Under the pieces are notes generated by a model. It saw only the letters and a program-made list of their open reading frames with translations, was not told the origin of the DNA and made no database searches. A program made the translations under genes and the position numbers. Positions 35,822 through 58,987 of a stretch of 64,000 nucleotides of DNA are shown here, one piece after another. The DNA comes from Escherichia coli. GTDB lineage: Bacteria > Pseudomonadota > Gammaproteobacteria > Enterobacterales > Enterobacteriaceae. Location: NCBI RefSeq assembly GCF_044324875.1, contig NZ_CP172185.1, one strand, 5' to 3'. Within the stretch, counting starts at the first letter, position 1. Each line of letters starts with the position of its first letter.

Positions 35822-35837
35822 ACGCAAACGGTTTCGT
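35822..35837 (+). promoter_or_regulatory. PurR operator in the purL promoter region
   Basis: ACGCAAACGGTTTCGT matches the PurR box consensus. Confidence 0.75.
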
Positions 35838-42663: not shown

Positions 42664-43987
42664 ACCTGCGCATTTATTATTGGTCGATGACGATCCGGGA
42701 TTGCTGAAACTGCTTGGCCTGCGCCTGACCAGCGAAGGCTACAGCGTGGTCACGGCGGAAAGTGGTGCTGAAGGATTACGGGTACTGAATCGCGAAAAAG
42801 TAGATTTAGTTATCAGCGACCTGCGGATGGATGAAATGGATGGTATGCAGCTGTTTGCTGAAATCCAGAAAGTGCAGCCGGGAATGCCGGTAATTATTCT
42901 TACCGCACATGGTTCTATTCCCGATGCCGTTGCTGCAACACAGCAGGGCGTGTTCAGTTTCCTCACCAAGCCTGTCGATAAAGACGCGCTATATCAGGCA
43001 ATTGATGATGCGTTGGAACAATCCGCGCCAGCCACCGACGAACGCTGGCGCGAGGCGATTGTCACCCGCAGCCCGCTGATGCTGCGTTTGCTGGAACAGG
43101 CGCGGCTGGTGGCGCAATCAGACGTCAGCGTTTTGATTAATGGCCAGAGCGGCACCGGGAAAGAGATTTTCGCCCAGGCTATCCACAACGCCAGCCCGCG
43201 CAATAGCAAACCATTTATTGCTATTAACTGTGGTGCATTGCCCGAGCAATTGCTGGAGTCGGAGCTGTTTGGTCATGCGCGTGGCGCGTTTACTGGCGCT
43301 GTCAGCAATCGCGAAGGTTTATTCCAGGCGGCGGAAGGCGGTACGCTATTTCTCGATGAGATTGGCGATATGCCCGCACCGTTGCAGGTCAAACTGCTGC
43401 GCGTGTTGCAGGAGCGTAAAGTGCGCCCGCTGGGCAGTAACCGCGATATTGATATCGACGTGCGGATTATTTCCGCCACTCACCGCGACCTGCCAAAAGC
43501 GATGGCGCGCGGGGAATTCCGCGAAGATCTCTATTACCGCCTCAATGTTGTCAGCCTGAAAATTCCGGCTCTGGCAGAGCGCACAGAAGACATTCCGCTA
43601 CTGGCAAATCACCTGTTGCGCCAGGCGGCAGAGCGACATAAACCGTTTGTCCGCGCGTTCTCCACCGATGCAATGAAACGCCTGATGACCGCTAGCTGGC
43701 CGGGTAATGTACGCCAGTTGGTCAACGTGATTGAACAGTGCGTGGCGCTGACCTCATCTCCGGTGATTAGTGATGCATTAGTAGAGCAGGCGCTGGAGGG
43801 TGAAAATACGGCGCTGCCAACCTTTGTTGAGGCACGTAATCAGTTTGAACTCAACTATTTGCGTAAGCTGCTGCAAATTACCAAAGGCAACGTCACCCAC
43901 GCGGCGAGAATGGCGGGGCGCAACCGGACAGAATTTTATAAACTGCTTTCCCGACACGAGCTGGATGCAAACGATTTCAAGGAATGA
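42653..43987 (+). CDS. glrR: Sigma54-dependent response regulator GlrR, 444 aa
   Basis: Receiver domain, AAA+ sigma54-activator domain (GESGTGKE, GAFTGA) and C-terminal HTH. Confidence 0.9.
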
Positions 43988-44430: not shown

Positions 44431-45621
44431 TCACAGCACCTTATGCGGACCAAAGCATTCGTAATGAATGTTTTCCTGCTTCACGCCCAGATCCACTAAC
44501 TGTTTCGCGGCAAACTGCATGAAGCCAACCGGGCCGCAGAGATAGAACTGCATTGTCGGATCGCTGAACGCACCTTCCAGTTTGCTCAAATCCATCAGAC
44601 CTTCGCTATCAAACTGACCTTTAGCGCGATCGGCTTCGCTCGGCTGACGATACCAGGTGTGCGCGGTAAAGCGCGGCAGTGCTTGCCCCAGTTCCTTAAC
44701 TTCATCGGCAAAGGCGTGAACATCGCCATTTTCTGCCGCATGGAACCAGTTCACTTGTGCTGTGTGGCCAGCTTTTGCCAGCGTGTCGAGCATTGCCAGC
44801 ATTGGCGTTTGACCGACACCGGCAGAGATTAACGTCACTGGTGTGTCATCTGCGACAGCCATAAAGAAATCACCTGCTGGAGCGACTAGTTTCACGACAT
44901 CGCCAACATTGGCGTGATTGTGCAGCCAGTTGGATACCTGCCCACCCTCTTCGCGTTTCACCGCAATACGATAGCCTTTGCCATCCGGTTTGCGAGTCAA
45001 AGAGTACTGACGAATTTCCTGATGCGGGAAACCTTCCGGCTTCAGCCAGACGCCGAGATATTGCCCCGGACGGTATTCTGCCACTGCGCCACCGTCGACC
45101 GGCTCCAGTTCGAAGCTGGTGATAAGCGCGCTGCGCGGTGTTTTAGCCACAATGTGGAAATCGCGAGTACCTTCCCAGCCACCGGCTTTGCTGGCGTTTT
45201 CGTTATAGATTTCCGCCTCGCGATTGATAAATACATTAGCCAGTACGCCATAGGCTTTACCCCACGCGTCCAGCACTTCCTGGCCCGGGCTGAACATTTC
45301 GTCCAGCGTCGCCAACAGGTGTTCACCGACAATGTTGTACTGTTCCGGTTTGATCTGGAAGCTGGTGTGCTTCTGCGCGATTTTTTCTACCGCTGGCAGC
45401 AGCGCAGGCAGGTTTTCAATATTACTGGCGTAGGCGGCAATAGCGTTAAACAGGGCTTCACGTTGATCGCCATTACGCTGGTTACTCATGTTAAAAATTT
45501 CTTTGAGTTCTGGGTTATGAGTAAACATACGGTCGTAGAAATGGGCGGTTAACTTTGGCCCCGTTTCCACCAGTAAAGGGATGGTGGCTTTTACTGTAGC
45601 GATGGTTTGAGCGTCAAGCAT
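44431..45621 (-). CDS. hmp: Flavohemoglobin (NO dioxygenase), 396 aa
   Basis: Globin N-domain plus FAD/NAD reductase domain; start at [11 protein letters not shown]. Confidence 0.95.
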
Positions 45622-45645
45622 ATGGTCTTCCTTTTTTTGCATCTT

Positions 45646-45670
45646 AATTGATGTATCTCAAATGCATCTT
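45646..45670. promoter_or_regulatory. NsrR operator in the hmp promoter
   Basis: AATTGATGTATCTCAAATGCATCTT is the reverse complement of an AAGATGCATTTGAGATACATCAATT-type NsrR site. Confidence 0.7.
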
Positions 45671-45948
45671 ATAAAAAATAGCCCTGCAATGTAAATGGTT
45701 CTTTGGTGTTTTTCAGAAAGAATGTGATGAAGTGAAAAATTTGCATCACAAACCTGAAAAGAAATCCGTTTCCGGTTGCAAGCTCTTTATTCTCCAAAGC
45801 CTTGCGCAGCCTGAAGGTAATCGTTTGCGTAAATTCCTTTGTCAAGACCTGTTATCGCACAATGATTCGGTTATACTGTTCGCCGTTGTCCAACAGGACC
45901 GCCTATAAAGGCCAAAAATTTTATTGTTAGCTGAGTCAGGAGATGCGG

Positions 45949-47202
45949 ATGTTAAAGCGTGAAATGAACATTGCCGATTATGATGCCGAACTGTGGCAGG
46001 CTATGGAGCAGGAAAAAGTACGTCAGGAAGAGCACATCGAACTGATCGCCTCCGAAAACTACACCAGCCCGCGCGTAATGCAGGCGCAGGGTTCTCAGCT
46101 GACCAACAAATATGCTGAAGGTTATCCGGGCAAACGCTACTACGGCGGTTGCGAGTATGTTGATATCGTTGAACAACTGGCGATCGATCGTGCGAAAGAA
46201 CTGTTCGGTGCTGACTACGCTAACGTCCAGCCGCACTCCGGCTCCCAGGCTAACTTTGCGGTGTACACCGCGCTGCTGGAACCAGGTGATACCGTTCTGG
46301 GTATGAACCTGGCGCATGGCGGTCACCTGACTCACGGTTCTCCGGTTAACTTCTCCGGTAAACTATACAACATCGTTCCTTACGGTATCGATGCTACCGG
46401 TCATATCGACTACGCCGATCTGGAAAAACAAGCCAAAGAACACAAACCGAAAATGATTATCGGTGGCTTCTCTGCATATTCCGGCGTGGTGGACTGGGCG
46501 AAAATGCGTGAAATCGCTGACAGCATCGGTGCTTACCTGTTCGTTGATATGGCGCACGTTGCGGGCCTGGTTGCAGCTGGCGTCTACCCGAACCCGGTTC
46601 CTCATGCTCACGTTGTTACTACCACCACTCACAAAACCCTGGCGGGTCCGCGCGGCGGCCTGATCCTGGCGAAAGGTGGTAGCGAAGAGCTGTACAAAAA
46701 ACTGAACTCTGCGGTTTTCCCTGGTGGTCAGGGTGGTCCGTTGATGCACGTAATCGCCGGTAAAGCGGTTGCTCTGAAAGAAGCGATGGAGCCTGAGTTC
46801 AAAACTTACCAGCAGCAGGTCGCTAAAAACGCTAAAGCGATGGTAGAAGTGTTCCTGGAACGCGGCTACAAAGTGGTTTCCGGCGGCACTGATAACCACC
46901 TGTTCCTGGTTGATCTGGTTGATAAAAACCTGACCGGTAAAGAAGCTGACGCCGCTCTGGGCCGTGCTAACATCACCGTCAACAAAAACAGCGTACCGAA
47001 CGATCCGAAGAGCCCGTTTGTGACCTCCGGTATTCGCGTGGGTACTCCGGCGATTACGCGTCGCGGCTTCAAAGAAGCAGAAGCGAAAGAACTGGCTGGC
47101 TGGATGTGTGACGTGCTGGACAGCATCAATGATGAAGCCGTTATCGAGCGCATCAAAGGTAAAGTTCTCGACATCTGTGCACGTTACCCGGTTTACGCAT
47201 AA
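45949..47202 (+). CDS. glyA: Serine hydroxymethyltransferase, 417 aa
   Basis: Start at [12 protein letters not shown]; PLP-lysine motif [14 protein letters not shown]. Confidence 0.95.
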
Positions 47203-57531: not shown

Positions 57532-58439
<908 letters not shown>

Positions 58440-58987
58440 TCCAGGAGATGCTCCTGCATGGCTTTCAGATATGCATTTTCTGCGCGAAGATAACGCAGCT
58501 CATTCTTCATCTCTTCCGGCGTCATGTTTGCCTCGTTTTCATGGGTATCATCAGAACGGGTCATGCTTTTCTCCTTCCAGCGCCTGATAAAGGCCTCATT
58601 ACCAGATTTGCGGTAGCCTTTTATCCAGTTTTTAACCGTGTTGTGGCTGGGAATGTTAAACCGGGCAGCTACCCGGGGTAGAGACTCAGAATGCCCGAGA
58701 GCATAAAGAACCACGCAAAGTTTATCTTCAGGAGAATAGCTACGCTTGTGTCTGCAATCCAGTGCCCGAGGACCGTGAAGAAGAAAAAGATTAATCCAGT
58801 GTGAGAGGCTGGTGTGAGAAAGTTGAAAGAGTTTTGCCGTAGAAATGATGCCTGCATGACCGGCCAGGTAATGATTTACAGCGGCAAGTTTTACTTCAAA
58901 TGAATGTTTCATAAACTGCACCTTCAGATGTCAGATTATGTCCAACATTTGGGGTGCAGTTCATTCACGCCGCATCCGGCATCTTTC

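Follow-up and report, generated by a model that had tools for sequence, protein, structure and literature searches.

The hmp and glyA genes, encoding a flavohaemoglobin NO dioxygenase and serine hydroxymethyltransferase, lie divergently around 45.6 kb in a stretch of Escherichia coli chromosome (the window, meaning the whole 64,000 nucleotides analysed), and the DNA between them raises the question of which regulators address the two promoters and through which bases. An earlier reading of the sequence, here called the original prediction, had named both genes, had separated them by 327 bp and had picked out an NsrR-type inverted repeat, a second inverted repeat and a PurR-like half-site as candidate operators. 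The gene identities and their divergent arrangement are correct, as judged by tblastn to MG1655 and by RefSeq annotation: hmp is the ORF at 44431-45621 on the minus strand, with 99.2% identity to MG1655 Hmp, and glyA the ORF at 45949-47202 on the plus strand, whose product is 100% identical to MG1655 GlyA. Three Hmp residues differ from K-12, and the window therefore comes from a non-K-12 strain. The spacer, 45622-45948, measures exactly 327 bp between the two genes, and all of the sequence strings quoted in the original prediction are found in it. In MG1655 the pair b2551/b2552 flanks the same divergent 327 bp, collinear with the window apart from one substitution, with 45622-45806 identical between the two. 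This sole spacer difference, at window position 45807 (C here, T in K-12, plus strand), falls in a poorly conserved stretch outside all of the boxes described below. A 601-bp query across the spacer matched 5,425 of 5,426 complete E. coli genomes, and the matches were always annotated glyA and hmpA.

The region is, with a probability of about 93%, the known bidirectional hmp/glyA control region of E. coli. The published hmp and glyA control regions are the same object as the DNA analysed here, and nothing in it is novel. It is a curated and experimentally dissected case in which signals of NO (through NsrR and FNR), homocysteine (through MetR) and purines (through PurR) converge on one divergent promoter pair. 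The present analysis changes nothing in that picture; its value is one of calibration, as the NsrR and PurR sites were recognised from sequence alone and the published sites were reproduced base for base. The sequences, positions, statistics, conservation and identity to published ChIP motifs are results of this work, while protein occupancy and effector responses are taken from the literature.

Conservation was assessed with comparative loci retrieved from species-representative genomes by a degenerate glyA coding pattern. This returned at least 120 loci, mostly from Pseudomonas, Vibrio and Betaproteobacteria, and among the matches listed there were five further usable divergent hmp-glyA loci. 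Six spacers were thus aligned, from E. coli, E. albertii, Enterobacter cloacae, Superficieibacter electus, Enterobacter sp. Bisph1 and Enterobacter sp. Ag1; the Hmp proteins of the five comparison loci are 78-98% identical to that of the window, and their spacers are 272-329 bp long. The alignment is conserved in blocks. One of these, TTTATAAGATGCATTT, joins the hmp -10 hexamer to the left half of the NsrR dyad; the others are AACCATTTACA, which holds the hmp -35 hexamer, both MetR boxes, the PurR box as TTTACGCAAACGATT, a block of 19 bp that lies upstream of the putative glyA -10, GTTATACTGT, and the 25 nt that directly precede the glyA ATG. Between the blocks, identity falls to 52-64% and indels occur. 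Only the Escherichia sequences have the FNR half-sites and the accessory NsrR half-site. The features are collected in the table.

Several other kinds of element were considered for the spacer and rejected. Small ORFs of 42-58 aa begin with TTG or GTG and are crossed in other species by indels that are not multiples of three. Upstream in-frame ATGs, at 45642 for hmp and 45943 for glyA, were ruled out as starts by Shine-Dalgarno spacing and by the RefSeq annotation. An RNA element in the spacer or the leaders was dismissed on three grounds: an Rfam search of the spacer and leaders gave nothing except one chance miRNA hit, the glyA leader folds no better than its shuffles (z=0.19) and the covariation term of the alignment fold is slightly unfavourable (+0.44 kcal/mol).

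Table. Features of the hmp-glyA spacer in window coordinates, ordered from hmp to glyA
Feature	Position	Strand	Basis or remark
hmp start codon	45619-45621	-	CAT on the plus strand; translation; RefSeq hmp/hmpA at the corresponding place
hmp Shine-Dalgarno AGGAAG	45627-45632	-	5 nt before ATG; AGGA partly conserved in six species
Accessory NsrR half-site AAGATGCAAAA	45635-45645	-	19 bp from hmp ATG, in the putative 5' UTR
NsrR operator, 11-1-11 dyad AAGATGCATTT-G-AGATACATCAA	45648-45670	-	Core match, matrix, published ChIP-seq site, conservation
FNR box TTGAGATACATCAA	45648-45661	-	Wholly within the NsrR operator
hmp -10 TAAGAT	45666-45671	-	Promoter scan; invariant in six species
hmp -35 TTTACA	45690-45695	-	Promoter scan; invariant in six species
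Second inverted repeat TGTGATG-N14-CATCACA (TGTGATGAAGTGAAAAATTTGCATCACA)	45723-45750		Present; chance-level palindrome
MetR-type box A GTGAAAAATTTGCAT	45732-45746	+	hmp-proximal; within the second inverted repeat
MetR-type box B CTGAAAAGAAATCCG	45754-45768	+	glyA-proximal, weaker; conservation, spacing, literature
PurR operator ACGCAAACGATTACCT (-) / AGGTAATCGTTTGCGT (+)	45815-45830	-	Consensus, leave-out matrix, ChIP-chip motif, conservation
Conserved block TTTGTCAAGACCTGTTATC	45838-45856	+	14/19 columns invariant; between PurR operator and glyA -10
Probable glyA -10 TATACT	45872-45877	+	5/6 of TATAAT; 5/6 positions invariant in six species
glyA Shine-Dalgarno AGGAG (45938-45942) and ATG (45949-45951)	45938-45951	+	Sequence reading

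On the hmp side, the NsrR-type inverted repeat of the original prediction (AAGATGCATTTGAGATACATCAATT, 45646-45670, minus strand), put there at about 25 bp from the hmp ATG, lies 24 bp from it; the hmp strand reads TATAAGATGCATTTGAGATACATCAATTAAGATGCAAAAAAAGGAAGACCATATG across the operator. The enterobacterial NsrR core, gATGyAT-N5-ATrCATc (PMC1274295), is matched at all 14 specified positions by 45650-45668, the single exact match in 64 kb where 0.007 would be expected, and only 0.3% of 300 dinucleotide shuffles contain any match. An 11-bp half-site matrix was derived from the ChIP-seq sites tabulated for CFT073, excluding those of hmp. By this leave-out matrix the left half, AAGATGCATTT at 45660-45670, agrees at 11/11 positions and takes the top place among 127,980 positions, while the right half is poor (7/11 positions, rank 424) and the summed 11-1-11 score ranks second in the window. 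The strict NsrR palindrome AANATGCATTTNAAATGCATNTT has no match in the window at up to three mismatches because the hmp right half carries four, and the hmp dyad is therefore asymmetric. The published motif is likewise described as 11-1-11, and the hmp site of that form given by Mehta et al., TTGATGTATCTCAAATGCATCTT, ChIP-seq positive in CFT073 (PMC5320621 Table 4), is the plus strand of 45648-45670, base for base. The ChIP-seq peak at hmp is modest, at 3.8-fold (PMC5320621); hmp is also a target in K-12 NsrR ChIP-chip, and Salmonella NsrR has been shown by EMSA to bind an hmp probe. In the six species, 10 of the 11 positions of the left half are invariant and the core is kept in all, and the right halves outside E. 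coli, such as AAATACAT and AAATGCAA, come nearer to the consensus.

The same dyad overlaps the hmp promoter. A promoter scan of the hmp strand gives TTTACA-18-TAAGAT with 9/12 matches, and 5 bp of the -10 hexamer also belong to the left half of the NsrR dyad. Transcription of hmp would start at about G45659, which would set the dyad at about -11 to +12. Downstream of it lies the accessory half-site. In the literature the half-sites AAGATGCATTT and AAGATGCAAAA lie 44 and 19 bp, respectively, from the start of hmp (PMC5320621), and these distances correspond to 45660-45670 and 45635-45645. The second of them is among the sites given for the NsrR ChIP-seq peak at hmp in CFT073, with a PatSer score of 5.0 (PMC5320621 Table 2). 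It forms with the main half-site a direct repeat, TAAGATGCA, at 25-bp spacing; it is weak by the leave-out matrix (rank 227), and loose NsrR half-site patterns occur across the window at background frequency.

A further NsrR-type site was seen elsewhere in the window, and both the NsrR and the PurR matrix recover sites outside the spacer, namely this one and the purL operator. An IS3-family element at about 57564-58950 (orfA 58391-58921 and orfB 57564-58286, both on the minus strand) is inserted beside yphA/hcaD, some 13 kb from hmp, and at the start of its orfA, at 58886-58924, there is a strong 11-1-11 dyad, AAGTTTTACTTCAAATGAATGTT, together with an 11-mer, AAGGTGCAGTT. The matrix score of this site is circular, as its 11-mers are in the training set. 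The IS-borne 23-mer equals the CFT073 NsrR ChIP-seq-positive sites 'c0118/c0233', which the authors described as transposase-like (PMC5320621).

The motif check for FNR that the original prediction had suggested was productive: a box was found inside the NsrR operator, matching TTGAT-N4-ATCAA at 9/10 positions. One-mismatch matches of this kind are expected about 2.2 times per 64 kb and about 0.011 times per 327 bp, with loose FNR patterns at background frequency across the window. As the box falls wholly within the 23 bp of the NsrR site, FNR and NsrR must compete for one stretch of DNA. This near-perfect match, and published work on FNR repression and NO sensing at hmp, to which citing papers refer, would be accommodated by a reading in which the 45648-45670 dyad serves FNR first and foremost and hmp responds to NO mainly through FNR, with NsrR secondary. 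That order of precedence is very improbable. In the six-species alignment the FNR box shows no conservation beyond Escherichia: both half-sites degrade in Enterobacter and Superficieibacter (to TCTAAAATACATCAT in E. cloacae, for example), whereas these genera keep the NsrR core and left half. Rodionov et al. described the same pattern, with the FNR site conserved in E. coli and S. typhimurium only (PMC1274295). In vivo, hmp lacked an FNR ChIP-seq peak, although a matrix predicts a site there (PMC3688515), whereas NsrR was positive there by ChIP-seq and ChIP-chip (PMC5320621). Reviews treat NsrR as the strong hmp repressor and state that the regulators known earlier did not explain NO induction. 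In-vitro binding of FNR at hmp is among the work cited in PMC3688515, where silent FNR sites are generally attributed to occlusion by other proteins, and the missing peak is consistent with competition between two proteins for that 23-bp stretch.

Towards glyA, the original prediction had reported a PurR-like half-site at about 45815-45830 (string AATCGTTTGCGTAA, 45819-45832). A PurR element does lie there, although it is a full 16-bp operator, of which the supposed half-site is the left part. The PurR consensus is a 16-bp palindrome, ACGCAAACGTTTTCGT / ACGNAAACGTTTGCNT, with a central CG, and the site agrees with ACGCAAACGTTTTCGT at 13/16 positions. A matrix made from 19 published ChIP-chip motifs, with those of glyA and purL left out, gives it 21.8 bits and second rank among 127,970 positions. 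First rank falls to the purL operator at 35822-35837 (ACGCAAACGGTTTCGT on the plus and ACGAAACCGTTTGCGT on the minus strand; 22.8 bits), which has one mismatch to the consensus, equals its published ChIP-chip motif and served as an internal positive control for the matrix; the next unrelated position scores 12.6. Cho et al. placed the glyA PurR ChIP-chip peak at 2,683,277-2,683,995 and its motif, AGGTAATCGTTTGCGT, at 2,683,648-2,683,663 (PMC3159470 Table 1). The window site is this motif in sequence and also in coordinates, which were converted by equating window position p with NC_000913.3 position 2,731,456-p and then shifting by 1,978 to reach the older genome version. Enrichment at glyA (log2) was 2.08 with adenine and 1.13 without (PMC3159470). 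Binding of PurR to the glyA promoter has been published by EMSA, and RegulonDB lists the site as 'confirmed' by independent methods. The matrix and regulon-database checks proposed with the original prediction bore it out for PurR, as did the first rank of the left half-site for NsrR. Across the six species, 12/16 positions of the PurR box are invariant, including ACGCAAACG(A/T)TT, and the E. cloacae box, ACGCAAACGTTTTCCT, agrees with the consensus at 15/16 positions.

The PurR matrix also ranked seventh, at 12.3 bits, the sequence TTGAAATCGTTTGCAT at 43965-43980 on the minus strand, about 70 bp upstream of the glnB ATG (44048) and inside the 3' end of the response-regulator gene upstream of glnB. 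This is probably the weak glnB PurR operator, a site that is known and was reported as missed by ChIP-chip (PMC3159470).

In mid-spacer, the second inverted repeat of the original prediction, placed there at about 45724-45751, is present one base away, and its 7-bp arms are perfect. As a palindrome it does not exceed chance: the spacer holds two perfect 7-bp-arm inverted repeats against 0.8 expected in such A+T-rich DNA (P=0.20), and an automated repeat search reported no inverted repeat at its thresholds. The perfect arms, and the resemblance of TGTGA and TCACA to CRP half-sites, would suit a separate dimeric regulator, CRP-like or unknown, acting on TGTGATG-N14-CATCACA itself in place of MetR. 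The likelihood of this is little short of negligible, given that no position of the left arm is invariant (mean identity of 0.38 to the E. coli bases over the six species), the arm being missing or altered in the four species outside Escherichia, and that the bases which are conserved make up a dyad of MetR type whose centre varies. The specific CRP reading was rejected, since TGTGA and TCACA are 18 bp apart where CRP has N6, and no CRP-type pattern occurs in the spacer at up to two mismatches.

MetR had been offered tentatively in the original prediction for this repeat, and what endures of that suggestion is a conserved MetR-type box inside the repeat, not the long palindrome. The MetR palindrome is ATGAA-N5-TTCAT, and hmp/glyA belongs to the enterobacterial MetR regulon (PMC4239095). 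Box A agrees with the palindrome at 8/10 specified positions; its arms TGAA...GCAT are conserved in the six species and its central 5 bp vary. Box B agrees at 6/10 positions and has a mean identity of 0.92 over the six species, in all of which the centres of the two boxes are 22 bp apart. The 327-bp spacer contains two MetR patterns with up to two mismatches where about 0.15 would be expected, one of them box A and the other, which is unassigned, at 45689-45703; the window contains 32 against 30 expected. With the pattern at background across the window, it is conservation, spacing and the literature that carry the case for MetR, and a passage of PMC5002191 describes a tandem pair of TGAAnnTnnTTCA-type MetR sites in the regulatory region of hmp and glyA. 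The two sites would correspond to exactly the bases of boxes A and B. The comparison speaks against the long palindrome as the functional unit and points to its conserved part, MetR-type box A, which is paired with box B. A third MetR-like pattern, ATGTAAATGGTTCTT at 45689-45703, has two mismatches, is conserved and overlaps the hmp -35; its conservation may come simply from the hexamer and its upstream flank.

All of the testable defining features of NsrR and PurR operators are thus found in the spacer; those of the FNR box are found in sequence and not in conservation, and for the MetR boxes the architecture and conservation are present and the sequence is weakly distinctive. The original prediction had singled out the NsrR and PurR sites and the second repeat, and had passed over the FNR box, the accessory NsrR half-site and both promoters. 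That the motif matches are a coincidence of A+T-rich DNA without a regulatory role, as might be argued from the 39% G+C of the spacer against 52% for the 64-kb window and from the background frequency of loose MetR, FNR and NsrR half-site patterns, can be set aside as having a negligible chance of being right, because both the PurR matrix score and the exact NsrR core match are far beyond what background and shuffled sequence give, the conserved blocks fall on the motifs and the sequences are those of the motifs under published ChIP peaks.

The glyA promoter is less plainly laid out in the sequence. Its -10 hexamer is probably TATACT, favoured over the alternative AATGAT (45861-45866) because TATACT is conserved and AATGAT, with 0 invariant positions in six species, is not. 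The geometry of the promoter, and hence the positions of the operators relative to +1, are given here as predicted. The conserved block upstream of the -10 contains an invariant TTGTCA (45839-45844), which at 27 bp from TATACT is too far away for a normal -35, and which the promoter scan pairs with AATGAT at 16-bp spacing. The block also contains a perfect TTGACA on the hmp strand, and TGTCA/TGTTA repeated at 10-bp spacing. It is unlikely to be bound by an uncharacterised regulator of glyA or to belong to a promoter of unusual architecture; an ordinary -35 or upstream RNA polymerase contact, or an alternative promoter using AATGAT, is the more likely explanation. Over the 25 nt that precede the glyA ATG the six species hardly differ, a degree of conservation beyond what a Shine-Dalgarno sequence by itself requires. 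In the glyA leader (45884-45948) a small 5' hairpin, GUCC-AACA-GGAC, has two compensatory pairs.

Together with published work, these features suggest how the region would operate. The sigma-70 promoter of hmp would be covered by the 23-bp NsrR dyad, so placed that holo-NsrR, a repressor of the Rrf2 family with a [4Fe-4S] cluster whose occupancy is taken from the literature, would occlude the -10 and the start region. According to that literature, NO destroys the cluster, upon which NsrR would leave and hmp would be transcribed. The weak extra NsrR half-site is found 25 bp downstream, in the putative hmp leader. FNR would add a secondary, anaerobic and NO-labile repression of hmp. In mid-spacer, the two tandem boxes for MetR, a LysR-type protein, set 22 bp apart, would serve both genes. 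From published studies, MetR with homocysteine would activate glyA, and when homocysteine is depleted, for instance by nitrosation, MetR at the hmp-proximal box would raise hmp expression. The 16-bp PurR operator, just upstream of the glyA promoter, would exert a modest repression when PurR carries hypoxanthine or guanine, again as the literature describes.

These arrangements can be set beside the known systems. In K-12, an hmp NsrR operator with an overlapping FNR site is reportedly documented in the work of Rodionov 2005, Bodenmiller & Spiro 2006, Partridge 2009, Mehta 2015 and Cruz-Ramos 2002. The 23-mer and the distances of the half-sites to the ATG are the same in the E. coli K-12 hmp promoter as here, and the operators are without differences. 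The glyA control region of E. coli, with a PurR operator and two MetR sites, is likewise said to have been established by Steiert 1990/1992, Lorenz & Stauffer 1995/1996 and Cho 2011. Its PurR 16-mer and coordinates are those found here, the two tandem MetR-type boxes are in line with its description, and no difference was detected. Among other NsrR operators, that of ytfE has the left half AAGATGCATTT in common with hmp, and both ytfE and hcp share the 11-1-11 geometry. The hmp right half, AGATACATCAA, is degenerate and doubles as an FNR half-site, whereas the dyads of ytfE and hcp are near-perfect; the corresponding PatSer ln(P) values are -18.2 for hmp against -25.1 for ytfE (PMC5320621).
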